Shown in pieces: positions 7,753 to 31,505 of a DNA stretch of 64,000 nucleotides. The notes beneath the pieces were generated by a model. It was not told the origin of the DNA, searched no databases, and saw only the letters and a list, made by a program, of their open reading frames with translations. A program made the translations under genes and the position numbers. Location of the stretch: the NCBI GenBank assembly GCA_964187785.1, contig OZ076409.1, positions 65,722,001 through 65,786,000 on the forward strand, read 5' to 3'. The DNA is from Amphiscolops sp. MND2022 (lineage: Eukaryota). Each line of letters opens with the position of its first letter. The stretch's first letter is position 1.

Positions 7753-7840
7753 AATAGTTGTAACTCCTCAATTTTATCCCTAAAACCTCAAAATACTAAG
7801 ATTTTTAACCGTTGTACCTTTGGGACACATTAATTTAAAT

Positions 7841-8202: not shown

Positions 8203-8219
8203 TGGTGGCCATAGAGAGG
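8203..8219 (+). promoter_or_regulatory. Primer binding site of BEL element (possibly tRNA-Ile type)
   Basis: TGGTGGCCATAGAGAGG directly after the LTR. Its complement ends GGCCACCA like eukaryotic tRNA-Ile(AAU); the isotype is inferred. Confidence 0.85.
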
Positions 8220-9203: not shown

Positions 9204-9950
9204 ATGGTTTTCATATTAGCAGCTAGTTCTTTAAATCATGCTTTGGAAACATTAAGCACCGAAGAAAAAACTCGATATGACGACAAAATTTTTTCAATCC
9301 CGGGCCTGAGTCTGAACAAAAACACCAAAAATCCGAGAAAAATTGTTCAAAATTTGCTTTCCAAAGATCTGAAAGAGAAAAACAATATTGTTATATGGCA
9401 TGATGTTTTAAATAACAGCATTTCTCGACATGAAAGCAACAATTTTCAAGCACTAACTGCGTCACAATTGATTGATGAGTTGAAAGGCCTTCAGAACAAG
9501 CTCAGTGCTCTGGTTTATTGCCAACGACATCGCACGCCGAACATTTTTGAGGATTTGAATGTTTTGAAAACCGATCATAACATTGAAGTATTCAGCATCG
9601 TGGAGGATTTCATTTCGTCGAAAAAACAAAAGAATCCGGAACTTTTGAAAAAATATAAGGCTTTACACCAGAGTCCTGAACTCGATCTGAAAAGTCTTGA
9701 TTTCATTCTACGGAAAGAAAATCAACTATCCGCCATCACCGACAAAAGCCGTCAAAGAGGCCTAGCAAGCGTGCCCGCAACGCTGCAAAAAGGGCTTCCC
9801 CGAACACTTCTCAGTGAACACCGCCCCCCCCATACCTTGTTAACCGTTGTAGAGACAGTGTCCAAACTTAATTGTTTGGTTGAAATCTCTACTCGCAATC
9901 CTTCGTCTTCAGGGTTGTGTCCAGTCTTCATTGACTGGTTGATACCTTGA
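9204..9950 (+). CDS. Accessory ORF of BEL element, SGNH/GDSL-hydrolase-like fold (3' end possibly frameshifted)
   Basis: ATG-initiated ORF between PBS and gag. VFILAASSL, SIPGLSL, IVIWHDVLNNSI and KALHQSPE occur in the order and spacing of SGNH blocks I, II, III, V. Confidence 0.65.
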   Translation: MVFILAASSLNHALETLSTEEKTRYDDKIFSIPGLSLNKNTKNPRKIVQNLLSKDLKEKNNIVIWHDVLNNSISRHESNNFQALTASQLIDELKGLQNKLSALVYCQRHRTPNIFEDLNVLKTDHNIEVFSIVEDFISSKKQKNPELLKKYKALHQSPELDLKSLDFILRKENQLSAITDKSRQRGLASVPATLQKGLPRTLLSEHRPPHTLLTVVETVSKLNCLVEISTRNPSSSGLCPVFIDWLIP

Positions 9951-10246
9951 AAACTCAGTCTTCGCCTTCCTCGACTGTCAGAATAGTGTCCGGACTTAAT
10001 TGACCGGTTGAAATCCTGGCAGTACCGTTCCCCTCTCACCTTTCCCACTGAGTTAGCGCCTTCAGCGCACCTTTAAGTCCTTTGTCTTCGTCCTCGTAGT
10101 CCCAGACTACTTTTAACCCAAACAAAAAAATCTTCCACGCTTCGTGCAGAAGCACTACTGTCAACCGTTACATTACTGGTAACAAAAGCCCCCTTTTTCG
10201 GATACTGATCCTTTTGGACTGTGTCCAGACTTAACTGTTTGGTTGA
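9858..10246 (+). promoter_or_regulatory. Four copies of a 26-nt hairpin motif upstream of gag
   Basis: GTGT-[6-bp stem]-TT(A/C)A(T/C)T-[stem]-TTGA at 9858, 9917, 9986 and 10221, with compensatory stem changes. Confidence 0.75.
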
Positions 10247-10306
10247 CGCCCAAAAAGATTCTGTTCCAATTTTGATTGAAGTTGTTTGACTAATTTCCGA
10301 TTAACG

Positions 10307-13300
10307 ATGACCGACCCCATGTTAGAGAAGGTTCAGAAGCTCCACGAAAGCCGTTTAAAGATCGAAACAGAGTTGAAAAAGTTCCAGAAAGATATCATCG
10401 ATGCCGTGAACAATTCTGAACGACGCGTTCGCGTTGAAAGATTAGTGACATATTGCAACGAAACAATGACTAAAGCCTTTGCGAAGAACGAGCAGCTGTT
10501 AGAGCTCGCAAAGAAGTCAAACGACCCAGTAACTATAACTGACGACCTAGAGAAGTGGTTAGATGATGTCACCGTGGAAAATGACAGAATACTGCAGAAA
10601 GCAAGGGAGTACATCGATCAATGTCCGCAATCCGAAAAGTCCTCCCAAACTTCACGGAAGGCAGCTACTGTCAAAACTAAATCTAGCAAAGTCTCAAGTT
10701 CTAAAATGTCCAAAACATCGAGTCAACGGCAACGAGATCTCGTTATTGCTCAGCAAAGACGTGCGGAGATTGAAAAGCAGAACGAAGCCGCACTACGTCT
10801 GTCAAAGCAAAAACAACAACTCGAACTTGAGCAACAAGAACTGGAACTGGTAAAACTCCGAAAGGAACAAGCTTTGAGAGTTGAGGAATTGGAAGAAGAA
10901 AACCGTCGAAAACTAGCAGAAGCAACTTTGACAGAAATGGCACTTCGAGACGATTTGTCCGATTCAAACACAGACTTTCACGAAACTCTGTCGCGCTTGA
11001 GCGCTTCTAGCAGAGGAAAGGAAACAGAGCGAATAAGCGATTGGATCAACAATTCGTCCAATGTTACTGAAGCTAACGCTCCACCTCCAGTCACCACTAC
11101 TACGACATCAGCTTCAAACAATGCTGTTACTAGCACAGCATCACTGCAATTCGTTGAGAACGGAACTGCTTGTCAGGTAGGCATAGCAAGTCAAGATCCT
11201 GCAGCTGTTTACGGCCCAGTTACTAGTGTTCCACCACCACTTCCGAATATTACACTTGTTCAGCAACCGGCTGCTTCTGTTTCACTTCAAAGCAACCCCA
11301 TGAATGTTATACCTTCCGTACCAATGACTGTTCAACCTCCCGTACCAACATTGAATCCGATGATAACAACAACGGCAACAATCACAACCAGTCCAGCCGT
11401 TCCACCAACGATTCCTGCACCTTTCAACCCAATTGTCAATGTGCCAGTGAGTCATGTAATTCCAAATCTGACCGCATGGACGTTTCCTCACGTACCTGTT
11501 ATTCCCTCTGTACAAACAAGTAGGCCACTACCGCAAAGTCAACCGACCCCAATCGCAGCAACAACCGCCTCTTTGGGTAGTACACCTCTACCGACAACAG
11601 TACCTATCTTGCCTGTCACGTGTGGAGGAACTGTTTATTACTTACCGCCACCAGTTGTAGCTACTCCAGCTGTTGCTAGTACATCAACTCAGCCGTCATC
11701 ACTGTTCCCCAGTGCGAATGCAACACCATTTGTGCCATCTTCAACAACTTCCGTGACCCAAACCAGTGTACCGAGCTTTACAATCCAAGACGTTGCACAA
11801 ATACTGGCTTCAACGAAGAAAGACCACCTACCAGAGTGGAAACTGTCTCAATATAGCGGCGACCCTATTCAATGGCATGAATGGTATGGACAGTTTAAGA
11901 GCGCCATTGACTCTGCCCCTCTGACAGATGATGTCAAGCTGACATATCTGAAAACATTGGTGACTGGGAAAGCTAAGGTCGCAATTGCCGAATTCGCCTA
12001 CTGTGGGGCCATGTACAAAGATGCCCTCAAGACACTTGAGCGCAAATTTGGACAACCTCAAGCAGTAGTGACTGCATACTTGGATAAACTTGCAAATGTA
12101 CCCCCGGTGAAAATGCACAACAGCGAGAGTATCATAAGCTACTCTGCAACTGTCAGTTCGTTAGTTGGCGTATTTCGATCGCTCAACTACAACCAAGACC
12201 TGTCAAGTGCATCACTACTCGGTCAAGCAGTGCAAAAGCTCCCACCAAACATGAAGGAGGCTTGGTCGATGCACACCGTTAAGCGTAGTTTAGATCGACC
12301 AACACTAATTGACTTCAATGAGTGGTTGAAAGATAAAGCTGAAGCTCATGAACGAATGAAGACTGCATCGGGCAAACCAAAGTCGGACGAAAATCCCCAA
12401 CCAAGTGTCAACAAAACCAAGACAACTTCGAAAGTGTTCGCGGCAACGACATCAAACAACCAACAAAACAGCACATTAAAACCAAAGTCCGACAGACTGC
12501 CAAATTGTGTGGCGTGTAAAGAGAAACATCCTCTGTGGAGATGTCCGGTGTTCCGTAAGAAAACTCCCACAGAGAGAGCAAAGTTAGTTGCCGACAACAA
12601 GCTTTGCTTCTCTTGTTTCAATCCCAATCATTCCTTCCGACAATGCCCGCAACCCCGCAAATGTACTAAAGAGAACTGTGAAAGCACTCACAACACGTTT
12701 TTACATGGGGCCGACCGGATCTTTCCGAATAAGAACCAAGTAACGAAACCACGAAATCCTGAATCTTCTACCTGTGTCGGAGCAACAAAGATAAGCGAGC
12801 AGTTAGAAACAACCTCAGGCCTACCTTCCGTCACGGACGTTAAGGGTCTTCTGCAGATAACGGAAGTCGAATTGCATTCTACAGCCGCCTCTGAAAAGGT
12901 TTTAGCGCTGTGCGATTCAGCCTGTAGCCATTCATGGATTTCTGCGAGATTGGCAAATAGATTGAAAGTTCAAGGCGTATCGACGAAACTTACTGTACAT
13001 GGGATTAACTCCCATCAAGTCATAAGTACGGAGATGGTGGAGCTCAAGTTGACACCGGTTCATTCGGGTGGCTCTTGCTCCCCTTCCACCAACAACCCAT
13101 ACGTCCGAGAAAATCTGAACGTGGGAACCGACACGATCGACGTGAACTACCTGAAAACTAAGTACCCACACTTGGAACCAATATCTTTGCAGAAGTACAG
13201 CTATGCCGACGTCGACATGATCCTAGGTCAGGACGTGTTTCACTTTATCCGCCCGCTGGAGTATTTCGATTTCGACCGTAAGAATACCCCAGTTGCCGTT

Positions 13301-16300
13301 CGTATACCGTTGGGCTGGGTATTGAGTGGACCTCTTCCATCAACTTCTGGATTTTATTCGACATGTTTTAAGGCTGTTTCTACTAAAAAAGACGTTGATT
13401 CAGAATTAGCTGACCAACTCCGTAGCTGGTATGATATGGAATCATACGGAGCATTCAAACAGGTAGACTCCCGCTCCGCTGCCGATGCGAGAGCGGAGAA
13501 GATACTTGACGACAAGACATACCACGACGGGTCCCGATACCAGGTGGGTATGCTTTGGGCTGAGGACGATAGTAGTTTACCGAACAACTACTTTTCGGCA
13601 CTCGTCCAGCTCAAGTCGCTAGAACGCCGTCTCGCGAAAGACGTAGATTTGAAAGAGCGATACTCCAAAACGATTCAGGACGACTTTTCAAAGGGGTACA
13701 TTGTGAACGTCGACAAAGGCGATTGTTTCAAAGTGAATGAAGTCCGCGAGTGGTACCTTCCGCACCACCCTGTAGTTCATCCCCACAAATCAGGCAAAGT
13801 TCGACGAGTGTTGAACGGCGCCGCCAGGTTTCAAGGGCAGTCCTTAAACAATTTGCTCTTAACCGGACCAGATTTATTACAGAATCTGATCCACATTTTG
13901 ATTCGATTCCGCCAACATCCACACGCTGTATCGGCTGACATTGAAGGAATGTTTTTACAAGTCGGTGTCATTCCAGACAATAGGCCTTCACTTCGTTTTC
14001 TGTGGCGCAAAGATCCAGCATCCGAAGTTGCTGTTTTTCAATATGTTCGTCACATCTTCGGATCCAAGGACTCCCCCACATGTGCGAACTATGCCCTGAG
14101 ACGAACAGCAACCGATAATGCATCACAGTTTCCCGAAGCCGCCCAAAGCGTCATCAACAATTTCTACATGGATGACTACTTGGAATCCAGCCCAACCGCA
14201 GAAGCTACCCGGAAAGCTAAAGATCTAGTGAATTTGCTTTCATTAGGTGGCTTTAAGCTAACGAAGTTCGTCTCAAACGTGTCTACCATTCCGCCACAGC
14301 TGGAAGCTGACCCCACATCACCAACCGAAGGTAAAGAAATCCCGAGCACCGAAAACTCGTCACATGTGTTGGGACTAAAGTGGAACCACAGTACCGACAC
14401 CCTCGTAGTCAGTCGTGGTACGAACCCTGAAGTCAAGCCAAAAGTAACTCAAAGGATCGTTCTGAGTTTAGTCTCTTCAGTGTACGACCCGATTGGACTT
14501 GTCGCACCGTATACCGTCAAAGCACGACTACTGCTAAAGGACATCTGGAGGCTAAGCGGACAACAATGGGATGACGACTTACCACCTGAAGTTGTAACCA
14601 AGTTCCTTGAATGGAGTGAAGAACTACCAGGCTTAAGCGACATTGTCATTCCACGAGCTTATTTCCAGGGAAAAGTCGAAACATTGGAACTTCACCTGTT
14701 TGGTGATAGTTCCCAAGACCTGTTCAGCGCTGTCGCGTTCCTACGTGCCAAGGTTGTCAAGAATGAAAACCAAGAACAAACACAACTCGCCTTTGTATTC
14801 GGAAAGGCCAGAGTCGCACCCATGAAAGCCTTGACAATTCCAAAACTTGAACTACAGGCTTCGTTACTAGCAGCAAGGCTTAGAAAAGAAATTGAGAAAG
14901 CCCTGTCACTGGAGATAAGTAAGACTTTCAAGTGGTCCGACAGCACAACTGTTCTGCAGTGGATACACTCTCTGGATAAGCAGCCAGTCTTCGTTGCGAA
15001 CCGCGTGGCGGAGATTTTGGACCTTACAACGACCGACGAGTGGAACTACGTAAAATCTAGCGAAAACCCTGCAGATGCAGGCACGCGAGGCCTGTCAGCG
15101 AAATCATTAGTGAGCAGCAGTTGGTTAAATGGACCGGAGTTTCTGAAAACGTCCGAGTGGCCGTTCAAACCATCGGAACCGCCAAAATTTAAACTGAAAC
15201 CTGACCTTAACGACCAAAGTACAGAAAAGCCTTCCCCCAAAAATGAGATTGTTCTCAGTTCCAATGTGGACATCAACACATCAACTTTCGAGTGGCATAA
15301 GTATAGCTCTTCCGAGAAACTTTTGCGTGTTGTTGCCTACCTGATGCGTCTCATTCCAAAAAATGAGGCCTACCGCTCCGAAACGGGTACCATTACAGAC
15401 CCAAGTGAACTTGAGAACGCACAAATGAAGCTTTCCTACCTGGCTCAATTGGAATCTTTCCCTATAGAAAAGAAGCTACTGCTGAAGAACTTCCCGCTCA
15501 GCAGATCCTCTAAACTTTTACAGTTCTCCCCCTTTGTTGGACCCAACGGTTTACTTCGAGCAACTGGTAGAACAAAGCAACTTGATGTATCTAGTTTTGA
15601 CGCAAAGCATCCCGTCTTACTGGACAGTCGCCATCCAGTTACACGTTTATTCCTCGAACAATTACACCGAGCTCATTGTCACCAAGGCGTGGACTACCTG
15701 AGAGCGTTGGTGCAGCAACAGTTTGCCATCGTCAAGCTTAGAACCGCCTTGAGATCAATAGTTCAAAGATGTGTAACTTGTCGAGCTGAGACTATCAGTC
15801 CGATGATGGCCGACCTTCCACGAGAAAGACTTGCATTCAAAGAACCTCCATTTACCAACACTGGCGTAGATTACTTTGGTCCTTTCTACGTTGCCGTGAG
15901 AAGATCGACTGAAAAAAGATGGGGATTCCTATTTACTTGTTTGACTACACGAGCTGTACACTTCGAAGTTGTGCCTTCCATGGACACTAGCAGCTGCATA
16001 ATGGGAATCGAGAGGTTTACAGCCCGCCGGGGTACCCCATCAGTTTTATGGTCGGACAACGGAACCAACTTTATAGCCAGTGAAAAAGAACTCCTACAGA
16101 ACATTTCCAGGTGGAACCAACAATTCTTATCTGAAAAACTTGTCAAGAAACGTATACTCTGGAAGTTCAAACCACCTAGTGCCCCTCACCATGGAGGCAT
16201 CTGGGAACGAGTGGTTAGAAGTTTTAAGCACGTTTTCTACGCAATTCTCGGAAACAGACGCTTAACTGATGAGATCTTGATAACCACGTTTTGCCTTGTT

Positions 16301-16720
16301 GAAAAAAGTCTGAACGCACGACCGTTAGTTCCAGCTAGCCCTGATGCCACAGATTTGGACGCTTTGACCTCAAACCACTTTTTGTTAGGAACTGCGGGTT
16401 CCGTTTTACCGTCGCATCAGCGTGCTGAAATTGACCATCGAAAACGCTATGTGCGGGAACAAGCCTATTCTGACGCCATATGGTATCGATGGTTGAAAGA
16501 GTATGTGCCTACGCTTAACAGACGTCCGAAATGGTCCAACCAGCCAGAGAGACAACTCAAGACCGGAGACCTAGTTTGGATCGTCGAGCCAACGAGTCCA
16601 AGAGGACATTATCCACTAGGTCAAGTTGTTAAATTGAATTTCGGCAGCGATGCCGTTGCGCGTTCTGCTGAAGTAAAGACCAGTACCGGTTGTCTTGTTC
16701 GTCCCGTTGTGAAGTTATGA
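10307..16720 (+). CDS. BEL/Pao gag-pol polyprotein
   Basis: First ATG at 10307. Gag core (YSGDPIQWHEWYGQF), three Cys/His knuckles (CVAC..H..C, CFSC..H..C, C..C..H..H), protease LCDSACS, RT (ADIEGMFLQV, YMDD), Pao RNase H (LHLFGDSS, KARVAP) and integrase (H..H..CVTC, DYFG, SDNG, WER). The terminal TGA may be slightly premature (VVKL*SVLP). Confidence 0.96.
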   Translation: MTDPMLEKVQKLHESRLKIETELKKFQKDIIDAVNNSERRVRVERLVTYCNETMTKAFAKNEQLLELAKKSNDPVTITDDLEKWLDDVTVENDRILQKAREYIDQCPQSEKSSQTSRKAATVKTKSSKVSSSKMSKTSSQRQRDLVIAQQRRAEIEKQNEAALRLSKQKQQLELEQQELELVKLRKEQALRVEELEEENRRKLAEATLTEMALRDDLSDSNTDFHETLSRLSASSRGKETERISDWINNSSNVTEANAPPPVTTTTTSASNNAVTSTASLQFVENGTACQVGIASQDPAAVYGPVTSVPPPLPNITLVQQPAASVSLQSNPMNVIPSVPMTVQPPVPTLNPMITTTATITTSPAVPPTIPAPFNPIVNVPVSHVIPNLTAWTFPHVPVIPSVQTSRPLPQSQPTPIAATTASLGSTPLPTTVPILPVTCGGTVYYLPPPVVATPAVASTSTQPSSLFPSANATPFVPSSTTSVTQTSVPSFTIQDVAQILASTKKDHLPEWKLSQYSGDPIQWHEWYGQFKSAIDSAPLTDDVKLTYLKTLVTGKAKVAIAEFAYCGAMYKDALKTLERKFGQPQAVVTAYLDKLANVPPVKMHNSESIISYSATVSSLVGVFRSLNYNQDLSSASLLGQAVQKLPPNMKEAWSMHTVKRSLDRPTLIDFNEWLKDKAEAHERMKTASGKPKSDENPQPSVNKTKTTSKVFAATTSNNQQNSTLKPKSDRLPNCVACKEKHPLWRCPVFRKKTPTERAKLVADNKLCFSCFNPNHSFRQCPQPRKCTKENCESTHNTFLHGADRIFPNKNQVTKPRNPESSTCVGATKISEQLETTSGLPSVTDVKGLLQITEVELHSTAASEKVLALCDSACSHSWISARLANRLKVQGVSTKLTVHGINSHQVISTEMVELKLTPVHSGGSCSPSTNNPYVRENLNVGTDTIDVNYLKTKYPHLEPISLQKYSYADVDMILGQDVFHFIRPLEYFDFDRKNTPVAVRIPLGWVLSGPLPSTSGFYSTCFKAVSTKKDVDSELADQLRSWYDMESYGAFKQVDSRSAADARAEKILDDKTYHDGSRYQVGMLWAEDDSSLPNNYFSALVQLKSLERRLAKDVDLKERYSKTIQDDFSKGYIVNVDKGDCFKVNEVREWYLPHHPVVHPHKSGKVRRVLNGAARFQGQSLNNLLLTGPDLLQNLIHILIRFRQHPHAVSADIEGMFLQVGVIPDNRPSLRFLWRKDPASEVAVFQYVRHIFGSKDSPTCANYALRRTATDNASQFPEAAQSVINNFYMDDYLESSPTAEATRKAKDLVNLLSLGGFKLTKFVSNVSTIPPQLEADPTSPTEGKEIPSTENSSHVLGLKWNHSTDTLVVSRGTNPEVKPKVTQRIVLSLVSSVYDPIGLVAPYTVKARLLLKDIWRLSGQQWDDDLPPEVVTKFLEWSEELPGLSDIVIPRAYFQGKVETLELHLFGDSSQDLFSAVAFLRAKVVKNENQEQTQLAFVFGKARVAPMKALTIPKLELQASLLAARLRKEIEKALSLEISKTFKWSDSTTVLQWIHSLDKQPVFVANRVAEILDLTTTDEWNYVKSSENPADAGTRGLSAKSLVSSSWLNGPEFLKTSEWPFKPSEPPKFKLKPDLNDQSTEKPSPKNEIVLSSNVDINTSTFEWHKYSSSEKLLRVVAYLMRLIPKNEAYRSETGTITDPSELENAQMKLSYLAQLESFPIEKKLLLKNFPLSRSSKLLQFSPFVGPNGLLRATGRTKQLDVSSFDAKHPVLLDSRHPVTRLFLEQLHRAHCHQGVDYLRALVQQQFAIVKLRTALRSIVQRCVTCRAETISPMMADLPRERLAFKEPPFTNTGVDYFGPFYVAVRRSTEKRWGFLFTCLTTRAVHFEVVPSMDTSSCIMGIERFTARRGTPSVLWSDNGTNFIASEKELLQNISRWNQQFLSEKLVKKRILWKFKPPSAPHHGGIWERVVRSFKHVFYAILGNRRLTDEILITTFCLVEKSLNARPLVPASPDATDLDALTSNHFLLGTAGSVLPSHQRAEIDHRKRYVREQAYSDAIWYRWLKEYVPTLNRRPKWSNQPERQLKTGDLVWIVEPTSPRGHYPLGQVVKLNFGSDAVARSAEVKTSTGCLVRPVVKL

Positions 16721-16919
16721 TCCGTCCTACCAGTTCCCGATTCCGAATCCTATTAGTTTCATTATTCGATCCCGAAAATTTGATTGTATTTATTTAACAT
16801 TAATCACTGAAACGAATAACATTTAACATGTAATCTGAACATCCACGTAAGTAAACCTTTTTGTGCAAAAAAAGTTATTTTTGTTTTAAAAAAAATCTCA
16901 TCTTCTCGAGCCCGGAGGA

Positions 16920-17280
16920 TGTTGCGTTCACAATAAGATTAAAATTGAACTGACCAATAACAAGGCGCTATGGCGAAATAGGTTAGTGCGCTTTATTCTA
17001 AAGCCGTAGATCGCGGGTTCGAATCCCGGTAACTGAAAATATTTAGTACTTACAAAAATAGAAAAAATAATGTTTTTCTATTCATTACTCATTTGCTATC
17101 TCGAAGTTATGTTTATTAATATTTGTCAACAACTGTATGCTCATTTATCAGTTTTGTCATTTTGTACAGATTAACTGTTTCGTCATTGTGGGCCGATAAT
17201 ACATTGAGAAATAGAGTGTTGCCTTTTTCCTATTTTTCAAATAGAAGAGACGAGATAACTGCCGAATGTTATTTCTTTTA
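16920..17280 (+). repeat. BEL/Pao 3' LTR (361 bp)
   Basis: Copy of 7841-8202, preceded by a short PPT-like CCCGGAGGA and followed by TSD TAAAT. Confidence 0.95.
16964..17035 (+). ncRNA. tRNA-derived A/B-box module in the 3' LTR
   Basis: Same sequence as 7885-7956. Confidence 0.7.
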
Positions 17281-18171
17281 TAAATGCTGGTTGACGAAAA
17301 ACTCTAATTTAGAATTCTGTTTTAAAGTTTATATGGCCTTGAGACGCACTGCAGAGATATTACCGTGTGCCTGGTTTGGCAAAATATGCGCACCGTAGCA
17401 CAATAAATATTCCTGGTTTGTATTCCGATGAGATAGTGTTCAGCAAGTGAGACATCCTACGTCTCATAAACTTGATAGCCCCTCCCGGAGTTATAGCAAA
17501 GGGAGCTGATAAAAAATTCAGGGCTGTTCTTTTATGTTGAATGATTGACTACTACCGCTGGCGAGTTATAGATTTCCAGTTTCCATCGTTTCATTAATTC
17601 ATGCCTAATTTTCTTTTGTGAAACTGGTCACATATTACAGGTGACCAAATGGAAAAAATATAATCTAGACGCGTGATGAAAAGCCCAAAAATTACACAAA
17701 TCACAAAATCATACTTCAAAATTTACAAAATCATTGAGAGTTTTTCATTTGGCACCGATTGAGAGATATTGAAAATAACAAAGCTCTTTGATTTCAAGAA
17801 CCGAAAAAGGTAAACGACAAAAAAGCCTCGCATTGTGTTTTATGAAAAAATATTAGAGCACGATATTCCCCAGCCGTACTTCTGAACAAGAAGAAGAATA
17901 AAAGGCTTGCAAATATGCTGGAAAGCCTCACTTAATTGAGTTTATGGCTGAAGAAACTTTATGGTATTAGGAGGGACGCCCCTATCAGTTTACTTTACAT
18001 CAATTTCATCAGAAATTATAAAATTCAGCGACAACGTGGTTCTTGTTGTAATAGTGAACTTAATATTGTACTTGGGAAGAGGTTATGGAAGAGTTTATGG
18101 GTGCATTTAAGCCAGCACTTGTATAGTTTTGAATAAATGGTCTTTAGACCTTGAGAAAATCGAGATATATG

Positions 18172-18262
18172 TATGTGGCGAACATATATGGTGGCTAAAT
18201 TAAATATGGCTAAGATTTACGGGCTAACTTATATGTGGCGAACTTAAAAGTGGCGAACTTAA
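18172..18262. repeat. Degenerate ~16-bp tandem repeat (GTGGCGAACTTA core)
   Basis: About six copies of (G)TGGC(G/T)AA(C)TTA-like units. Confidence 0.7.
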
Positions 18263-18270
18263 ACGGACAC

Positions 18271-18654
18271 GATTTCGTCCCATTTTTGACAGATTTTGTC
18301 CCGGATTACGGAAAAATATTCTATACTATACACAAAATTAAGCGCTAATCGGTATAATCTATTCGGTGATTCTTCATTCGGTGCTGTTACAGCCAATATG
18401 TATGGAACTTGATTTTTTTGAAGAAGTCAGCATCTTTGTTGTATGGCAACATTGAGGTATGGCCATATGGCACGTCGCTCCGCTTCGCTTCGCTCTTGCA
18501 TTTAGGGCACTAGGGGTATGTGAACATAGCTGACTACGTTATAATAATTATTTGGGACGAAATCTGTCAAAAATGGGACGAAATCTGTGTGGGACGAAAT
18601 TTGTCAAAATTCCACGTGGGACGAAATCTGTTTGGGACGATATCTATCACTCCC
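18271..18654. mobile_element. MITE-like element with inverted ends built of TGGGACGAAATCTG subrepeats
   Basis: GATTTCGTCCCATTTTTGACAGATTTTGTCCC at 18271 is inverted relative to GGGACGAAATCTGTCAAAAATGGGACGAAATC at ~18554. Five subrepeats on the right. Confidence 0.65.
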
Positions 18655-20432: not shown

Positions 20433-20783
20433 AACAAGACGAGAACGTCTAAAATCGGCGCTATATCTAAGGCTTAAAACACGTAAAACATTTTTTTTTG
20501 AAAAAAATCTTGATCTTTTCGAATTTTTTCTTTCGGAAAATGTCGCACAGTGCCGAAAAAATCCAAAGGGGGACCCTTTAGATTTTTTCGGCTTTGTAGG
20601 CTACGTTTAAAAAGTAAAAAACCAAAGGGGGACCTTTGGAATAACTTAGATGCGTTTCCCGGGGATTTGTTTAGTTTCTTTAGTTGAACGTTAACGTTCG
20701 TCGCTTCGAGTCTGTCTTTAAAAAAAGAAAAAAACGAGTGAATGTAATAGTCGGGCTCTTTTATTAATAAAAGCGCCGTCTAA
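20433..20783 (-). mobile_element. Diverged HINE-like element
   Basis: AACAAGACGAG..ATCGGCGCTATATCTAAGGCT at one end and TTTTATTAATAAAAGCGCCGTCTAAAA at the other. Confidence 0.6.
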
Positions 20784-22910
20784 AAAGAATCCATGATAAT
20801 CTGGCTTCACGAGCATGAAATCCAGAATGAGTTGCCTTTTAAGGTGTGAACAAATTGTCAGTTTGAATGATTGACAAGCGGAATGGCAGCGCTCAGATCT
20901 GTTTAAAAACAATTCTTGTTAACTTTTTGAAAAAATTGAGAGCTCGAAAATTTTTATTCAATGTTTTTTTGGTTCTCCTAGTAAAAGGTGACCTGGCTAA
21001 AAAGGTCACGTCAACATTTCACATATTTCAATTACAAATGGTTGTCAACAAGTAGTCAATTGTTTTTTTTGCTGGCCAATAATTTAATTTATTTACTAAA
21101 ATCATTTATTGGGCAATATCGATTCCGAGGACAACATCGGACTCAAGAAATCGTTGTCTTTTCGGGCAAAGAAATAACGATTACTGAACTTCAAAAAACA
21201 GAACTCAGCCAACTTTCACTTTTCTAAATAGTATGCCTTGCAGATAATCATTCAAATCGGAGCTCTTATTTCGTAACGTGATCACAATTTCAACTAGCAA
21301 TGATTCAAACCTTTAAAAAGGTTTAGGCAACTATACCAGTTCTTTCTTTCAGACTTCTGATGTTTTTTGCATCAATGACAAAAAATAGTCAGTAGACGAG
21401 CGGAACAGCAGTATTCAAATAGGTTTGAAATCTTCTCAAGTTTTCGAAATTTGAAAACTCGAAAATTTTTATGCGTTCCGCTTTTTTCTCATAGTAGCGA
21501 AGGCTACATTTCTGAACTTCGACAGCTTAAAATGCTTTTCGCACATTTGGATTGACAATTTAATTCCGACTAACATTTGAGACGTCTTTGCACTTTAGGG
21601 TGTGTTGCACTCATCTAATGAAATCTAGGGATTCAGGTCTAACTTTTCACATCTTTTCCCTCAATTGATTAAACATTTTTAACTGGCCAACAATTTATTA
21701 TCCGGTTAACCGGTTTACTGGTCCAAGCTGTACTCTGACGCTTGACTTGCGTGAAGTAAACAACTGATATGCTCAGCAACACGTCATTGCCTGATACAAC
21801 ATTTTTGTGATGAATTCAAAATTTGTAAACATGGTTACGGCAGCGATTGTCGTTAGAAACACTGCAGAAAGATTTGCACATTTTTCTCAATAATCTCTAT
21901 ACGGGTAGCGGAAGAATTATGTTCAGAAAGAAAGCTGAAAAAACTATAAAAACTATAGTTTTTTTCTTGAATAATGTTAAGTTTTATTGTCTAACATGTC
22001 CTATTTTTATGCTGATAACATATGAATAGAAATGAACATGTTTTCATTTTTTACAAGGTGTTATGAATGGAAAGATTTTTTGTAATTTATAACGTTTTCG
22101 ATTTATAGAGAACACACCAACAATGTCGCTGGTAAAATTACAGATCCGTAGCAATAATTAACATAACATTAAGTATAAAAAATATGGTAGTTTTTTTAAA
22201 ATGTTATTACTTTCTTTTTTCAAAGTGAAGTAAAAGAATCCTCAATTTTTTTTGCAACATGAAATTCAAGCAAATTAAGACCATTATCCGTTGTCAACTT
22301 CCTGAAACTTCATTTTTAAAAGACCGAAGGAATTTGAACAGATGACCAAAAAACATCCGTTCCAATTTGAGAACAAATACAGTGATTGTTCATCGTTTGA
22401 TTTCTCCACAAAGTAAAACGGAAACCGAATAAATTGAAAACGGGATGAATTAGAAGACAAACCGCCATTTTTAATAAAACCGAAAACAGTCAAGGGAATT
22501 CAAAGAGGAAAAACTCATAAATCAATTAGATACAAAGGTACCTACAAAGAAACGGAGACCTGATAATGCTTTTATGAAAAAGGGAATTAAAGGGAAGGGA
22601 ATTATTGTTGGTTTTATTCGAAAGGTTTGTGGAAATAAATGAATTAAGTAGGTATCGTTAAGAAGAGTTGATAGATTTCTTTTGTTGCTCCTAGAGATTT
22701 GAAGATGGAAATTAAGATTAAATTATGTTGGGGCAGTCGTGTAATGCTTGGATATTTTTATCAAGGTTATTTCCAAGAGAACACGGAGCTGACCTTTAAG
22801 CCGACCCATTTTCAATTTGAGAGCCCTCATTTTTACTCCGCCCTCATTTAGAAAAGCTGTCCGTTTTGTTCACGTGGAGTTATGTTTTTATATTCAGTAT
22901 ATTTAAGCAG

Positions 22911-23340
22911 ATTACCAGAAATTTCGTCGTCAGAAATTTCGTCCGCAGAAATTTCGTAGTCCCAAATTTCGTCGCCAAAAACTACGCCGCCAGAAATTTC
23001 GTCGTCAGTAATTACGTTTTATGAAATTTTGTGGCATTTTAGGTTGTCTTTTAGGAATTGAAAGTCTTCTTATTGCCTCTCAGTGAGTCTACTTATCTGA
23101 ATAATTATCGTTAATTGAGCAATAGTTTCTATCATTGAATACCATTATTTCTATTTCGAAAAAAATTTCAAACATAATTTTAACTATTCAAAGAATTTTT
23201 TTGCACCAGGCGTTTTTTACATATATTACACGCATATTGACACTTTTCTGTGCACTTTTCTGTGAAAATTTTCTTGTATGTATGTTGGTAATTCTAATCA
23301 ATACGACGGAATTTCTGACGGCGAGATTTCTGGACCTCCC
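22911..23340. mobile_element. MITE-like element with 15-bp AGAAATTTCGTCGTC subrepeats in inverted ends
   Basis: About seven tandem units at 22915-23030 and inverted copies CGACGGAATTTCTGACGGCGAGATTTCTGG at ~23304-23333. Confidence 0.6.
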
Positions 23341-24304
23341 TTATAATCAGTATTATAATCTTTAGTTATAACTTGATGTATCGCTTTAGTACTCTACTCC
23401 AGGGGGAAAATGGAGGAAAATTTATTTCTCAAAAGATATTCCCCTTACGAATTGTGAATTTTGTCAGGACATTAGAAAATTTTAGAAAACTATGCTAGTC
23501 CTAACAGAACACTGGAAAGTTTAATCCTAGAATCTATGATTCCTAACTTTACACAATGCTACCAGGTGCGCTACTGGTTTTTTTCCAGATCTCAGCAAGA
23601 TAAAAACCTCGATTTTTTACTCGAATAATTATTTTAATTACGATTTTCATGTTCAAAATTAATTTCAGAGCGTTTTTTGATGAATAACACTCAATGTGTT
23701 TTAAAATTGGCTGCATTTGCACATCACAAAATTAATTTACTCAAATAGAATCTGCTAAATTAGCTCGTCGTAACTCAACTGCTAAAAATAGTAAGAGTTT
23801 GTTTCTGAAATCAACAAATTCACAAAAATATATATCTTTTTCCTGCACCAAATTTCCGTCCATGTGTAAATGCAACATCAAAAAATACCAAGCAAAATAA
23901 GGGAACAACTCAAGCAAAAATGAAAGCACAAATCTTATTCTTTCGTTTGATCTTACAACAACTGCGTAAGAGAAATAATTTATCGAAAATGTTAGCTTCT
24001 AATTACGAAACGAAACATCTTCAATTAGCGATCAGCTGCTTGAGATACCATTTACGGTTGCCTATGCTATTTTGTATACTCATGTAATCTCTTGTGCTAC
24101 AAAAAGCTACTACTAACGTAGTTTCCTGATTTATATCTGTAAAAATAATGTCAATTTAGAGCAATATGGCAAAGCCTTTGTATAAAAGAATTAGGCCTAC
24201 TAAAACATATTTTGTAAATTTTTGAGCAAACAGAGACCTGTTGAGCATCGGGACATTTCAACATCATGCCCACAGAAATATCCAAATGTTATATACCAAT
24301 TGCA

Positions 24305-25045
24305 AACAAGCTGGGAACGGCCAAAGTCGGCACCCCGCTCAATTAAAAAACAAAGTGTTTTCAATATGCAAAGGCACAGCATTGTGAGCATCCTAATCGA
24401 ATTTACAGTACCAAAAAATACCCGAAGGGATACCCATTGGACTCAAAAACAGCTTTTTCACAAACTGAAAACATCAAAACGAATTTTTCGAAACTGTTTT
24501 TCCGAATTTTTTGCTTCGGAAAAAGTCTTTTAATGCCGGAAGATGAACGTTCAAGCCAAAAACAATTTATGAAACTCCAAGGGGTACACTTTGATCAAAT
24601 GAATTGTTTTCCAGAAAAATTGCACCTAACACAATTTTTGAAAAAAATATTTCGACATTTTCTCTCCTGAAAAAGTCTCACAGTGACAAAAAACCCAATA
24701 TGAGACCCTATTTTTTCGCAAAACGCAATTTAGCGTGCTGGACCACATGCGAGCGTTTTTTTGAAACTTAGGTTCTTCGCCAGCCAAGCCCAATTTACTT
24801 CGGATATCACGTCAAAGTTCGGATATAGCGCAATGCTATTGAACATGCGCCTCCTCCTTAATAAAACGCAATAAAGTTGGGATATAACTTCAAAAAAATG
24901 AATATAGCGCATGGCTAGGACAACCGGTCGTTACCGTTTGAATAACATTTGCTCCTTGTTCTCCGTAAAAGTGGACGGATCAAAACTATTGGAGAAACAA
25001 ACTAGACACCGAGAGTCTTGCTTTTTCTCCGAAAACGCCGAGTAA
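24305..25045 (-). mobile_element. Diverged HINE-like element
   Basis: AACAAGCTGGGAACGGCCAAAGTCGGCACCCCGCTC at one end and TTTTTCTCCGAAAACGCCGAGTAAAA at the other. Confidence 0.55.
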
Positions 25046-26118
25046 AAACAGTGTAAAATTGAGAGAAAGGAGGAAGTTTACTTTTCCGGTTGCTACAGTT
25101 TCTGCCTTTCTATGTCAATGCACGTTTCAGATATTATCTCTCCAACTTAAGCTAAGTTACCATATTTGCAGCGAAGGTGTCAAGCCATGTCCGATTTGGA
25201 ACTGTGGTTTCGAAGTGCCTTCTTTAAAGTCTTAAAGGTTGCTCATTCCATTTCTGATTTCTCCGACATTTGAGTTTTTAGTTTTGACCATTTTCTAAGC
25301 TGGGTACGAAGGATCTGCTGAAATCCCAAAGATCACGAGGTGACTGATTTTTGGTGATACCGAACGGATACAGGTCTAGTGTTCCAAAAACTAAACTATA
25401 ATACTAATAACTCAAAACAATTGTTCTCTAAACAAAAGTTTGCTTAGTAGCTATATTGTTTAATTTCCATATCTCGAGATCCTATCATCGGAATCGGAAA
25501 CATCGAAAAATGAAAAAAACTATGAAAAAACGAAAAAATTGACCTTGCTTGGTTCAATTTAGGCATTTTTTTCCAAATACAGTTCCAATATTTTCCACAA
25601 AATAATGCTAAGGAGCCACAAAATTCATTCTTGAATAAGCATTCAAAAACTGCTGAAGAAGGATCAAAACTGGGAATGTTTCGTCATTTTCGTCCACTTT
25701 GATGCCATTTCGAGGCAATTTTTGTAGCCAGCATTAAAAAGTTGCCACTTTTCTCCGCAAATGCATAAGGTACGGTACGTATATGCGTTTATGATAGTTG
25801 AATTTTGTGTCGGAACCGCTATCATTTGAAGATAAAACTGGAATATGGCCAAGTGCCTCACAAGTGTTTGTATCCAGGGAACCTAACTCTTCAAAAAATA
25901 CTCAGTTTCTGTCAGTAGTAGCAGTCTATGCTGGAATGCTTATCCAATATTCTATTTTGACGAATGAATAGCTTTTAATTCAACTTCTTTTAAAATTTGT
26001 ATTTTAGGGTCTGCCTCTAAGAAAAGTTTTTTCTGGGAGTCCTGTTTGAAGTCTGATTTGAATAATGTTTGTGTATCTCTGCACTGACTGAATATGTGAT
26101 TTCAAGCTTTTTTCCAAA

Positions 26119-26826
26119 TGTAACGTCCGGCTAGCGGCGCACATCTAGGAAGAGGGATAATGCCTAGGATGCTTAAACAGGAGACCGTTGTCTTACTACA
26201 TACCTAGACACTAGTTTTTCATCCCAAAATGGTCTCCATGGGGGACTTTTCTAACGTCTAAGGAGACTCCTCTAATTAGAGCTCCGAGGCAACGCGCCGG
26301 CACTCTCAAAGTCCGGACACGCCCCACAAGCCTGTAAAAACGTATCCTAAGGTTTTAGCGCGTTCCTGCCATCTCCTACATACTTCCGAGGTCCAAAAGG
26401 GTGTTTATCCGAAAATTGTCATTTCAACAGTCATGGGCATGAAATGCCGACCTAGAAGGTCAGGCATGGGAAAAATAGCAAAATACATTAACATAAATCA
26501 ACAAAATCAAGGGGATAAGCCCCGAGTGGGAATGGAGTTACTGTTTGTGGGTTCTCGGGGATCCGATCATGTAGTTCTGGAGTGGCTCTGCTCTCCCAGG
26601 GAGGACACAGCACCGGGTAACGTTCTTTGAATTCTATCCCATGGATCTTCATGTCGTCAGTCGTCTACTTCTTTTTCTTCTTCTGTCTTTCTTCTTGTTC
26701 ACTCGTTCTCTCTTTCTTTTTTATGGGCTTTAAGGACCTGCCAGGTCGGCCATTTTGATTCGCACCTTTTTTGGTTCTTGAACGAATTTTTCAACGAAAA
26801 TTTGGTATTGACTGGTGGACGTTACA
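26119..26826 (-). repeat. Gypsy 3' LTR (708 bp)
   Basis: TGTAACGTCC...GGACGTTACA perfect 10-bp terminal inverted repeat. No differences from 44462-45169 seen by eye. Confidence 0.97.
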
Positions 26827-26840
26827 TCCTCCCCGGGCCG
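26827..26840 (-). promoter_or_regulatory. Polypurine-tract-like plus-strand primer site
   Basis: Minus strand CGGCCCGGGGAGGA immediately before the TGTAAC of the 3' LTR. Confidence 0.65.
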
Positions 26841-27410
26841 TAGTTTGTCGTCCTCGGCAAACGAGAGGATGCTCGCACCCAAAGGGTACTCTGAGGTCCA
26901 CAGAAAAGGTCTTATGTCAAAGTTACGTTGATATCACACTATTATTCTTTTCGCCTCACTACTACATGTCTAGCACCTTAAAGCCATCGAATTCAAAAAG
27001 CACTGATTTTTAAATTAAAAATTTTGCAGTCGGATTCTTTCTTTAAAAGGTTTTTTCACTAACTACTCAGTTCAAGTTAAAATTTCTTTTTCTAAAATAG
27101 GGCCCCTGCGCGGCCAGATGAGTAATAACAACTTTTGGGCTTGGTAGAAGTTTCCAATTCAAATCAAAACGGGAGGGCACCGAGCCGGGACCCACCCAGA
27201 GGATGTAACTATATTGCATTGTTACAATGGTAGCAAAGTATAATATACATCAAACAAAACTCAGGAATTAAGGTTTATTGCACTGAAAGTTTTCAGCACC
27301 AGTAAGATGGTATAGCACAACTAAAATCAAGAATTGGCATTAATATATTGACGACAGGGTCCTTTATGCTCAATTATGTTCTAACAGTCTTGAGGGTCCA
27401 GAGGACTCCT

Positions 27411-30400
27411 TTATTCCAGCAGTTGATCCTGTGGGGTTTCTTGGACTGAGGTGTTGCCCATGGCATCCACTGTGTTCTGATACTCTTCGTCTATTGTCAG
27501 CAGATTATTGAGCTCTGACTCTATGTCCGCTGCCTCCAAGTTCGAGATATTGGTTTCCACTTCATCTCTTACAGGAGTGGTGGCGTCAGAGAACGTGAAG
27601 TTATTACCAGTCATAGGTTCCCCTGATGGTGGCATGACGTCTGGCACATCATCTTGTGCTCTTTCCACCAATATTTCATTGGAGTCTTGACTCACGTGGG
27701 GTGTGGGGAAGGCGGTGCGAGAGCTGCCAGAGGCAGCTTCGCTCAAATCGCTAATTCCCGGGATAGCTTCGAGTGATTCCAAGTTCGGCAAACCGTCCGC
27801 TAATTCTTGGTGGCCATATTGGATGAACAGCTGCCTGAACGTTCGTATTCCCCTAGCGTACTCTTCGCCCACTGCTCGAGTACGTTCTCGTTGGAGACCA
27901 TGCAGGCGCACGAATATCTCTAGTGCCATACGCGGATTGCTGGGAACGTCAGTGTTCACGGGCAAATCTTTCTTGCTTGGTTCCTTGGCTACTGTCGGAA
28001 TAGTTGTCGGCAGCTGTTGGAAGGTCTGGTGTATAGCGAGGTCCACGAGCTCCGGCTGGGCCCAACACGTAATGGTATTCAAGATTCTGGCGGTGTGCTC
28101 GCGGGGCTCTGTCCTCGCACAATATATTCTGGAAGTGTCACACGCATAGGGATACAATAACCTAGTAGGTTCTTCTCCTTTTCGACGACCACCCAATCTT
28201 TGGATAATTGTTCTCAAGATACGCAGGACAACTGGCACGTCCCACCCTTCGAATGTCGCCACTGCTCCATTATTTGGATCAATAGGGGTGTGCAGCCAAA
28301 CTACAGGATGGATTTCCATCGGCAAAGGGAGCGAGCTACGTGCTCTCGCCTTGATCAAGGAGAGATAGTTGTGTTCCACTTGTTGGCGGTCTTTGATTAC
28401 GGTATACGCCATGGGAGGTCGCAAGTTGGCAAAGCTGTGTATCACTGATTGATAGGTGGGACCCTGAAGGGGCCCATCAGAGGTCACGAAATGTAGAATC
28501 GAGAGGGAAGGGCTCACTGCTGCCACTCGCAGGGTTTGCGTTGGATAGCGTAGGGCCATGACTGCGCCGAAGATGGGCCAGACTATCGGAGCAATGAGGG
28601 GCATTAGGTCCTCTGTTTCTACGAGCATTAGTGTTGCAACTTGTGTAGGGAACAGGAACCCAGGAAGTTGATTGGGGTCTCGGTTAATAGCTGGGCACTC
28701 ATCCAGAGGATGCATAACGCCCGAGACATTGACCCAGGTGGAATAAATCCACACTAGCAGTGCTTGAACGTTTAAGTCCAGCTGCGTCTTTAATTTCAAG
28801 GAACCCGCTGGGTCTAGGGTTTCAATGAGCGCAGATATCCAACCTCTTTGATTCTGCGAGAAGACTAGGAAGCTGAACAGGGCTGAGCCTCCCTTGTTGA
28901 GCACGAACTTTTGTATGAGGGCCGATGGTCCTCTGTACATCATGGTTAACCCCACGGCCATCAGGTACGCTAGTAGTTCACTAACGGTCGCTCTTTCCAT
29001 GGCCTCCATGTAGAGTCGCATTCGCTGCTCATCTAGGCCGTACTCGGCTTGTACTAAGGAAGGAAGCCAGAAGGGAGAGATGTTGTGGAGAAATACGGGA
29101 AATGTTATACCCAGTCGGTCCGCGACTTGGCCCAAAGGTTCTCGTAGTTGATCGTGCCATGTTTGGTACGTGTGTGTCGGCTCTTGAATATTCTTTTGTA
29201 CAACGTCTCGAGCCAGTATCAACAGCATGGCCAATGTCGGCGATCTTTGCCCAGGTTCAACATCTAATGATATTTGAGCCATGGGGAAGATGGAGGAATT
29301 CTTTCTATCACCCAGAACCGTCTCGGTTTCTTTCATTAGCTTTGTGAGTTCCTTGTGAAACTTGGGTTCGTGTGTTTTTTCGTCTACAGTTGACTCGTCC
29401 CGGCGTTCAAACCAGAGGTTATCCACCAGGTTATTGCGCTCACTTTCGTTTGGGTCGTTTACGATTCTGTCTCCACGTTCATTCAATGATCGGCGAGCCA
29501 TTTCCATCCCGTAGTCGAATGCTGCTGCTTCATCCACTACCATTTGGGAGTTTCCACGGTAACCGACGTATGATTGAAGGGCCTTTGAGACTTCAGCAAT
29601 GAAGGCTGGGTAAGAGGCTTCACAAGGGCGCCAGCTATTATTGCTGATGCGTAAATTGGGGGCCACAATGTAAAAGGCCAGATCTCTTGCGTACGCTGCC
29701 TCCATTACTAGGTATAAGAATTGCTGAAGGGTCCGAGGAAGGTGCATGTAGCCTGGAGGCGACATAAATACCGTTCCAGTGACAGCTTTCCTTCTGCGCA
29801 TAATTTGGGCAATATTCGCCATTGTCTCCACGTAGTTGGTCACTTCGTCGGTGACGAACCCCTCAGTAAATCTTTCGTGGTCTGGTCGGAAAAATTCCAA
29901 GGTCCCTCGCAAAGCGAGGTGATCTATAACATTTGAATATACCAGCAACGGAGGTAATGGGATGGTCTCTGTTCCCGCTTGGGTGAATACTTTGTCGGTC
30001 ACTTCTGCCATTTCGTTCAGTGTTGTACAGGGCATGTTCATTATTCTGACATCCATAAGGGTGTTGTGAGAGTTGAATGAAGACTTCATCGTCGAGTCGA
30101 CGAAGAAGGCTATTCTGGTTTTCTGCAAGAGATCCTTTCCCATGGGCAGGATTGTAATGGGGTCCCTCGCATAGTTTTTTGTTCGCAAGCGGTCTTCGTC
30201 GAAGCGGCCAGGGCGCTGTCGGAGGAAGTTGTCAGGAATACGCATGTATGTCGAGTTCACTCTCTCCAATTCTGCTCGCATGCGATTGAACCATGGGGGG
30301 CATCCATCTTGAGTGAACACTGGTTTCTTGACGGGACGATTGTAGAGTACTCCCACTGTGGCTTTTTCTATTTTCTGCCTTGTGGCGTAGTCCCCAGTTC

Positions 30401-31505
30401 CCGTTGAGGTCTCGAATTTCTGTCGTAGAGGGTCTTCTGGTGGCGTTGTGGTTGGTATTTCCCGCTGCAGACGCAGTGCGTCGCGTGCAGTGATATCCAG
30501 CTGCCGTTTTTCCGAATGTGTTAGGAGTTCGTGTGTTATTCTCGGTCTCCTTGTTTCTGGTTGCGTAGGTGAGGCAGACAAGGGTTGCGGGGCACTGGTC
30601 GAGCTCGATTGTTTGCTTTGCATGGTCGCCTCTCTGGCTCGCTTTCCAGCTTTTATTTTCTCCCGGAGGTCTACCACAGTGTTGGCTGCCTTACTTTCTG
30701 CTTTTTGTTGTTCTCGCTGACGTTCTCGGAATTGTGGGTCCATTTGGAAGCCTACTAGGCTAGCTGGTTCTGAGGCTTGTGGAGGTTCCGAGACTTGAGA
30801 TTCGGTTCTGGAAGACGTCTGAGTTAATTCTTCATATGAATCTTTGAACGTCACCGTTCTCCTGGGCTGTTCTTCGCTCAGGGTAGCACTTGCTGTATTG
30901 TCTACTTGCACCCCTCCCCCCTGAAAGGTAGATGGAGGCATGAAGGTAGAGGATGGGGTGGTCAGTAGGCGAATGCCTTCCGATGCCAGGGGCATGGGCG
31001 GTGTTAGTACTGGGGGTGGCACGATTGGCAAAGTGCAGCTGAACTGCACCGGGTGCGGTGAGGGCAACGGGGTCGTAGTTTGCGTCTGTAATGTCTGTAG
31101 TGCTGACTGTGAAATACGGAGTGATCGTTCTTGATCCATGGGAGGCCTGGTAGGTTCTCCATAGACTACGTGAGAGCGAGGGTCTATGAGGCTATGGGTC
31201 AAGTCATACCCTTGCCAGGTGCCGTCGCGAAAAGTGGCGGAGCGTTCTATCGGGCCGACTCGGCTGGTGATAGTGAAGCTAATATCAGGGTACTCAGCTT
31301 GAGCTTGGGTTTGGGCGATGATCATGGCAAAGCCAGTAATCATTGTAGGTGTCGCTCCGTTTAGAAGGGTGTCTTGGACGAGGGCTAGCTGGTCGACTCG
31401 ACCATCTATCTCGCTCATCATTGGAGGTGGGTCGTTCCTAGTGGATGGTTGGGCACGCGCAGCGTTCTGGGGTGCAGGCAGGCGGTGTCGCGCAGATGGG
31501 TCCAT
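27411..31505 (-). CDS. Env-position accessory protein (1364 aa from first ATG) with central SGNH-like domain
   Basis: Intact ORF between pol and the 3' LTR. Low-complexity P/S/T N-terminus; RIAFFVDST, MNMPCTTL, LLVYSNVID, VFMSPPG, SWRPCEASYPAFIAEVSKAL (about 29575-30120); then a helical/hydrophobic region and an acidic tail. No signal peptide. The ORF is certain; the domain call is by eye. Confidence 0.85.
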   Translation of the reverse strand: MDPSARHRLPAPQNAARAQPSTRNDPPPMMSEIDGRVDQLALVQDTLLNGATPTMITGFAMIIAQTQAQAEYPDISFTITSRVGPIERSATFRDGTWQGYDLTHSLIDPRSHVVYGEPTRPPMDQERSLRISQSALQTLQTQTTTPLPSPHPVQFSCTLPIVPPPVLTPPMPLASEGIRLLTTPSSTFMPPSTFQGGGVQVDNTASATLSEEQPRRTVTFKDSYEELTQTSSRTESQVSEPPQASEPASLVGFQMDPQFRERQREQQKAESKAANTVVDLREKIKAGKRAREATMQSKQSSSTSAPQPLSASPTQPETRRPRITHELLTHSEKRQLDITARDALRLQREIPTTTPPEDPLRQKFETSTGTGDYATRQKIEKATVGVLYNRPVKKPVFTQDGCPPWFNRMRAELERVNSTYMRIPDNFLRQRPGRFDEDRLRTKNYARDPITILPMGKDLLQKTRIAFFVDSTMKSSFNSHNTLMDVRIMNMPCTTLNEMAEVTDKVFTQAGTETIPLPPLLVYSNVIDHLALRGTLEFFRPDHERFTEGFVTDEVTNYVETMANIAQIMRRRKAVTGTVFMSPPGYMHLPRTLQQFLYLVMEAAYARDLAFYIVAPNLRISNNSWRPCEASYPAFIAEVSKALQSYVGYRGNSQMVVDEAAAFDYGMEMARRSLNERGDRIVNDPNESERNNLVDNLWFERRDESTVDEKTHEPKFHKELTKLMKETETVLGDRKNSSIFPMAQISLDVEPGQRSPTLAMLLILARDVVQKNIQEPTHTYQTWHDQLREPLGQVADRLGITFPVFLHNISPFWLPSLVQAEYGLDEQRMRLYMEAMERATVSELLAYLMAVGLTMMYRGPSALIQKFVLNKGGSALFSFLVFSQNQRGWISALIETLDPAGSLKLKTQLDLNVQALLVWIYSTWVNVSGVMHPLDECPAINRDPNQLPGFLFPTQVATLMLVETEDLMPLIAPIVWPIFGAVMALRYPTQTLRVAAVSPSLSILHFVTSDGPLQGPTYQSVIHSFANLRPPMAYTVIKDRQQVEHNYLSLIKARARSSLPLPMEIHPVVWLHTPIDPNNGAVATFEGWDVPVVLRILRTIIQRLGGRRKGEEPTRLLYPYACDTSRIYCARTEPREHTARILNTITCWAQPELVDLAIHQTFQQLPTTIPTVAKEPSKKDLPVNTDVPSNPRMALEIFVRLHGLQRERTRAVGEEYARGIRTFRQLFIQYGHQELADGLPNLESLEAIPGISDLSEAASGSSRTAFPTPHVSQDSNEILVERAQDDVPDVMPPSGEPMTGNNFTFSDATTPVRDEVETNISNLEAADIESELNNLLTIDEEYQNTVDAMGNTSVQETPQDQLLE

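Follow-up and report, generated by a model that had tools for sequence, protein, structure and literature searches.

Esterase-like proteins of the SGNH or GDSL kind are known as passengers of several transposable elements. Vesta, a gypsy-like long terminal repeat (LTR) element of bdelloid rotifers, has a GDSL/SGNH-type open reading frame (ORF), ORF3, that it shares with the Athena/Terminon Penelope-like elements (PMC5408684; reviewed in PMC6431247). The esterase of ZfL2-1, a long interspersed nuclear element (LINE) of zebrafish, is slow and binds anionic membranes through its surface charge even when catalytically dead (PMC3905857). A Helitron-borne SGNH protein has been published as well (PMC4021074). 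Published work has not settled what transposon esterases do: one LINE protein has had its activity and its binding to membranes measured, retrotransposition in HeLa cells does not need the ZfL2-1 ORF1p (PMC3905857), and the Vesta study found LINE esterases to be unrelated to its LTR-element ORFs (PMC5408684). Here we consider this question at a 64-kb stretch of the genome of Amphiscolops sp. MND2022 (contig OZ076409.1, positions 65,722,001 to 65,786,000), called the window below. It contains three LTR elements, among them a BEL element and a Gypsy element whose accessory ORFs had been proposed, in a sequence-only reading, to carry SGNH-like domains and to form an undescribed system. What emerges is a real, selected and hidden esterase-like cassette, ORF0, that is common to BEL and LINE elements; it is not a system of two elements.

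The BEL element is laid out as follows.

7841-17280, plus strand: BEL element, a BEL/Pao LTR retrotransposon
7841..8202, plus strand: 5' LTR (TG...TA), with a TAAAT target duplication before it and a primer-binding-site-like TGGTGGCC after it
9204..9950, plus strand: ORF0, a protein of divergent sequence and probable SGNH fold, with its core at about residues 1-172
10307..16720, plus strand: gag-pol, with DUF1759, protease, reverse transcriptase (RT), Peptidase_A17/RNase H, integrase and DUF5641
16920..17280, plus strand: 3' LTR, with a TAAAT target duplication after it

The two LTRs agree in 360 of 363 aligned columns. The LTR pair, the 5-bp target duplication and the DUF1759, Peptidase_A17 and DUF5641 domains found by Pfam in gag-pol place the element in BEL/Pao. 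ORF0 starts 1.1 kb upstream of gag, and position 9204 is indeed the ATG of a short ORF lying between the LTRs and upstream of gag-pol, as the sequence-only reading had placed it. The 1-kb leader (8203-9203, plus strand) holds six ATGs upstream of ORF0.

ORF0 belongs to a large family, with at least 150 scored matches in the genome, these being the best 150 of 3403 candidates. A BEL gag lies downstream, in the same orientation, at 28 of the 30 best loci, the window locus included. The family is under purifying selection: the ratio of nonsynonymous to synonymous substitution rates (dN/dS) is 0.09-0.15 in 19 of 22 pairs, and 0.26-0.34 in the three closest ones. The protein is a stand-alone cassette of roughly 200 aa, placed 5' of the coding genes, basic (isoelectric point 9.2-9.8), and with a Lys/Arg-rich tail at the end of its intact copies; a frameshift near codon 184 deprives the window copy of this tail. 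Long fused forms numbered none among 7998 candidates, which is weak evidence.

Another question is what ORF0 precedes elsewhere in the genome. Twenty loci with ORF0 of the window type (type A) were picked by similarity to ORF0 and fetched to span the diversity of the family. Downstream of it lies a BEL RT in 14 of them and LINE genes in the other six (L291, L293, L294, L295, L299 and L302), where the gene order is ORF0, ORF1, endonuclease-RT. PHD and CCHC motifs occur in the ORF1 of L293 and L302, the two scanned with a match. DNA similarity between different LINE families extends without a break from ORF0 through ORF2 (67% over 5.3 kb), and the LINE-borne ORF0 has dN/dS values of 0.056 and 0.066 in two of three pairs, the third being saturated; ORF0 is therefore part of these LINEs. 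It is not the type IV esterase of LINE ORF1, a full-triad domain within ORF1, because it is a separate frame before a PHD/CCHC ORF1. Identity between LINE and BEL copies is 32-46% (32-43% against the BEL subfamilies of the window), and ORF0 is present in at least three lineages of LINEs as well as in two deep clades of BEL elements. Since the same divergent family heads both BEL elements and unrelated LINEs, it has likely been swapped between the classes, and the suggestion of an exchange with esterase-bearing LINEs gains support for the BEL ORF.

Is ORF0 an SGNH protein? We take this fold as probable. A fold search with a weak model gave a ranking dominated by SGNH chains over other Rossmann-like folds, the top match being the domain of the O-acetyltransferase OatA, tied with esterases; this model and that of the Gypsy domain discussed below were built from shallow alignments. 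The candidate SGNH residues of the window copy are Ser8, Gly34, His66, Asn70 and His155. Across 29 diverse ORF0s, Ser8, His66, Asn70 and His155 are each conserved in 28, and position 34 is Gly in 20 and Ser in nine. The Ser of block I, the Gly of block II, the Asn of block III and the His of block V thus fall at SGNH places, in a block register that was set by motif and predicted strands, with no significant alignment behind it. The Asp of the DxxH motif is missing, position 152 being variable with no conserved acid. Some SGNH enzymes use a main-chain oxygen in place of this Asp (PMC10792757). ORF0 may be a Ser-His dyad acyl-hydrolase or an acyl-binding protein, a proposal that we give an even chance.

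ORF0 is not the only protein of this kind in the genome. A search with PF13472 gave 50 matches of 101 candidates, and the 30 loci that were read comprise 11 of a third Gypsy family, 15 esterases of the LINE ORF1 type (recognized as such from the endonuclease ORFs that follow them) and four others. The third Gypsy family has a full GDS/GTND/DGIH esterase directly after the integrase (L103-L110, and L277, where Pfam confirms it); the esterase at L277:7978-8946 matches both PF13472 and the OSK model (E 2e-9). A set of 20 distant BEL elements was chosen for PF05380 matches and long frames; two of them have type A, four have a full-triad type B, and in 14 neither is intact. Type B occupies the same 5' position as ORF0, is in frame with gag-pol in one family (L141), and matches the esterases of LINE and Gypsy elements in profile comparison (hhalign 94%, E 1.6e-7). 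In another BEL family, L269, a whole 201-aa full-triad type B ORF with a weak GDSL match lies inside each 1.27-kb LTR (405-1678 and 8329-9601), and many such pairs, 7.9 kb apart, occur in the genome. At least four SGNH-like types are found in BEL, Gypsy and LINE elements, at different positions and with catalytic sets that are full, partial or lost.

The Gypsy element of the window carries its accessory ORF at the other end.

26119-45169, minus strand: Gypsy element, a Ty3/Gypsy LTR retrotransposon
44462..45169, minus strand: 5' LTR of the pair
31836..41495, minus strand: gag-pol, with zinc knuckle, protease, RT, RNase H, integrase and a long C-terminal extension
31839..32330, minus strand: degenerate macrodomain at the C-terminus of Pol (hhalign probability 92%, E 8e-7)
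27411..31505, minus strand: ORF2, 1364 aa, acidic, without a Pfam match and with no convincing transmembrane series
29499..30137, minus strand: alpha/beta domain in ORF2, possibly an SGNH-derived pseudo-esterase
26119..26826, minus strand: 3' LTR (TG...CA), with a polypurine tract before it on the minus strand

A single mismatch separates the LTRs, and a clean target duplication was not seen for this copy. The gag-pol frame has 3299 codons. The LTR pair, the order protease, RT, RNase H, integrase, and the RT_RNaseH and Integrase_H2C2 domains assign the element to Ty3/Gypsy, so that Pfam bears out both superfamilies named in the sequence-only reading; position 31505, too, is correctly the ATG of the 1364-aa minus-strand ORF between the LTRs, downstream of gag-pol. 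The leader from the 5' LTR to gag (41735-44461, minus strand) measures about 2.7 kb, with a primer-binding-like TGG located 16 nt away from the LTR. Another conserved stretch of ORF2, some 500 aa long, mostly helical and without a Pfam match, lies at 28000-29500 (minus strand). An env gene is not supported as an interpretation of ORF2, which has a single hydrophobic window of modest score (best 2.06) and no Pfam match.

The alpha/beta domain of ORF2 has at least 150 scored matches in the genome, the best 150 of 2935 candidates, and is under purifying selection, with dN/dS of 0.03-0.12 in those pairs that allowed an estimate of dS (10 of 27). The window copy keeps the Asp-Ser-Thr of block I and has Arg for the His of block V; in the family, Ser is present in 24 of 33, block II is without Gly, and block V has Arg in 24 of 35 and His in two of 35. 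As only the Ser of the four Ser-Gly-Asn-His residues is kept in the window copy and the His is Arg, the domain is at best a pseudo-enzyme. We consider it reasonably probable that it descends from SGNH proteins separately from ORF0, as what would be a non-catalytic binding module. In favor of this descent, the domain matches the SGNH esterases of the same genome in register in a local profile comparison, above all 40 block shuffles, and GDSL lipases are the only named families among its 30 language-model (Atlas) matches. The structure model has a mean confidence (pLDDT) of 36, and 12 of its 50 weak fold matches are SGNH (five by title). The SGNH assignment is supported for the BEL ORF, through its fold search and conserved residues and within the limits of a weak model, and is suggestive for the Gypsy domain; structural confirmation, whose failure had been named as refuting the proposal, is passed weakly by the former, and yields the low-confidence model and mixed matches just mentioned for the latter.

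The macrodomain at the end of the Gypsy Pol, presumably TARG1-like, gives no Pfam match itself and was recognized by hhalign comparison with PF01661-positive macrodomains of other Gypsy families of the same genome. A possible second, weaker repeat lies at 32511-32978 (minus strand; hhalign E 0.06). Clearer macrodomains are seen in at least five other Gypsy families here: at the end of Pol, in the gap between RNase H and integrase, or before RT.

How do the two domains relate to each other? The sequence-only reading saw no obvious similarity between them, and profile comparison agrees: kinship between ORF0 and the Gypsy domain is not detectable (hhalign E 0.33 and 0.51), and direct kinship was rejected on this basis. 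A search of a viral fold library returned nothing at E<=0.001, and the OSK model PF17182 matches neither the window proteins nor their relatives. Between the two elements lie about 8.8 kb of unrelated DNA. In a genome of 1.07 Gb with about 3000 first-look candidates per family, chance pairs of BEL and Gypsy elements within 21 kb would number about one at 150 copies each and hundreds if the candidate counts are taken. At such copy numbers neighboring pairs are expected by chance, which is likely the reason why these two stand side by side; the closeness within 20 kb noted earlier is not shown to exceed chance. Independent capture, the other origin that had been considered, fits the Gypsy domain, unrelated as it is to ORF0 at the profile level, and the BEL ORF fits exchange instead. 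The undescribed system does not survive, because the elements are separate insertions and because GDSL/SGNH cargo shared between LTR elements and another retroelement class is already described (PMC5408684).

The remaining features of the window touch neither ORF. A second, compact Gypsy element (57577-62954, minus strand) has 270-bp LTRs with four mismatches, and a six-frame scan of it found no SGNH-like match. Inverted-repeat families and near-perfect hairpins, likely DNA elements resembling miniature inverted-repeat transposable elements, lie at 2727-3556, 6087-7756, 45417-45586 and 56877-57051, and 51469-53704 holds a degenerate tandem array whose units measure about 1-1.3 kb and are 82-88% identical.

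What, then, could these modules do? By a narrow preference, we favor the view that the elements are separate insertions whose accessory genes come from an exchanged pool of SGNH-type modules tying RNA-protein particles to membranes or lipids. The retroelements of this genome would likely exchange such a pool of esterase modules, and the BEL and Gypsy insertions would each have picked up a conserved accessory gene from it. Because ORF0 is basic and has a basic tail, membrane and RNA tethering is the best guess: surface and tail could bind anionic membranes and RNA, by analogy with the measurements on the ZfL2-1 esterase, a step that we rate at slightly less than an even chance. The replication routes of LINEs and LTR elements differ completely, so that a shared cassette must serve a common step, be it the targeting of RNA particles or the evasion of the host; a module useful to LINE particles and to LTR virus-like particles alike would act there. 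A rather unlikely variant takes the hidden family shared by LINE and BEL elements as passed on repeatedly and as a Ser-His enzyme, an acyl-hydrolase or transferase, whose one host target (a silencing factor or a lipid of the membrane) limits all retroelements; the full-triad types and the pseudo-esterase of the Gypsy element would have converged on the same barrier.

Several observations weigh against this pool of SGNH modules. Neither domain has a Pfam match or a PDB sequence match to SGNH proteins, and matches to designer pentatricopeptide-repeat (PPR) proteins were rejected as sums of weak repeat matches. ORF0 is not significantly similar to canonical SGNH esterase profiles, its best alignment is out of register, and its local score is equalled by 11 of 40 shuffles and its global score by 36 of 40; an attempt to bridge it by profile to the canonical esterases of the genome failed. 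For the Gypsy domain, two of 40 shuffles reach the global score, a reversed template reaches 17.9 locally against 20.9, the Atlas matches score 0.90 with 107-114 shared features, and the fold matches mix SGNH proteins with TIM-barrel glycosidases, the top ones being non-SGNH. Relatives with a GSND block III provide no bridge, giving neither a profile match nor a usable Atlas match. One or both domains could therefore be other three-layer alpha/beta folds with a chance likeness to the SGNH blocks, and for the Gypsy domain, with its poor model and one residue of four, this is most plausible. We nevertheless hold it to be quite improbable, as SGNH chains lead the fold ranking of ORF0, four of its invariant residues stand at SGNH positions, sister BEL families have a canonical SGNH protein at this position, and the Atlas signal for the Gypsy domain is an independent one. 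Did the modules really move so often? The ORF0 tree is star-like and so gives neither the direction nor the number of transfers, and the 14 of 20 other BEL elements without a recognizable intact cassette imply that it is dispensable or supplied in trans. ORF0 might have come down from a BEL ancestor with sorting of paralogs and a single move into or out of LINEs: its identity stays at a plateau of 36-40% whether the RT identity is 60% or 31%, as saturation would produce, the loci were chosen by their similarity to ORF0, and the starred branches force one change only per host class. Saturation and this ascertainment could explain part of the pattern among BEL elements, but not the presence in both LINEs and BEL, which needs at least one transfer across classes. 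In a BEL RT tree of 20 of 23 rows (three copies with a fragmented RT were omitted), both deep clades contain type A as well as type B, with at least two changes, and type B is in frame with gag-pol in one family and inside the LTR in another. Vertical descent is, for these reasons, the less likely account, though a shade more credible than counter-defense, the main rival as to the role of the modules. In that scenario they would bind an antiviral or silencing factor of the host or alter it by deacylation or acetylation, or would open germ-granule and piRNA compartments to the element as an Oskar-like RNA-binding SGNH domain, the idea of the sequence-only reading. Unrelated element classes keep the ORF0 cassette, so that a shared host pressure is suggested, and OatA, an acetyltransferase, tops the fold matches of ORF0, albeit tied with esterases. 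The macrodomain fold is used by viruses against ADP-ribosylation defense; a degenerate one is present in the same Gypsy element and others in several Gypsy families. The Gypsy domain has mostly Arg for its catalytic His, just as the RNA-binding OSK has lost its triad (PMC10792757). However, the OSK match of this genome is the full-triad esterase of the third Gypsy family and not a domain of the window, and the published bacterial contribution to oskar gives no link to these elements. We consider counter-defense doubtful.

The proposed pool of SGNH modules raises a broader question. Full, partial and lost catalytic sets within one genome form a natural series: is it catalysis or binding that is selected? 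Moreover, profile libraries miss such cargo, and extra BEL ORFs may therefore be under-annotated. Neither a BEL element with an SGNH ORF, nor BEL-LINE sharing, nor a paper on Gypsy macrodomains was found in the literature searched (without Repbase, supplements and most subscription papers), and a prior description is possible.

Against the systems already described, the likenesses are partial. Ngaro tyrosine-recombinase retrotransposons are LTR-like and have an extra SGNH ORF of unproven function, but belong to another superfamily and carry this ORF after the recombinase (PMC9210276). The OSK domain of Oskar (PF17182) sets a precedent for a catalytically dead SGNH fold that binds, hence its value as an analogy for the Gypsy domain (PMC10792757); the Ser replaced in OSK is kept here, and there is no sequence match to the window domains. 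Closer is the ORF1 esterase of ZfL2-1 and of CR1, L2 and RTEX LINEs, an SGNH module 5' of the RT gene, as ORF0 probably is, with basic motifs and reticulate exchange between lineages (PMC3905857, PMC4120745), and the His66-Asn70 spacing of ORF0 equals that of the transposon-specific H191/N195 (PMC3905857). There, however, the esterase forms part of ORF1 and has a Ser-His-Asp triad (PMC3905857, PMC4120745), whereas here it is a separate ORF0 before a complete PHD/CCHC ORF1 or a BEL gag, without the Asp and invisible to Pfam. Vesta, finally, is also an LTR element with an extra ORF, which there is of the SGNH type that is probable for BEL and possible for Gypsy here; the module is likewise shared between retroelement classes, and it is placed 3' as in the Gypsy element of the window. 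Its ORF3 is a recognizable GDSL protein with intact catalytic residues, in contrast to the His-less Gypsy domain inside a 1364-aa ORF; the BEL cassette, for its part, lies 5' of gag, and its partner here is an APE-type LINE.
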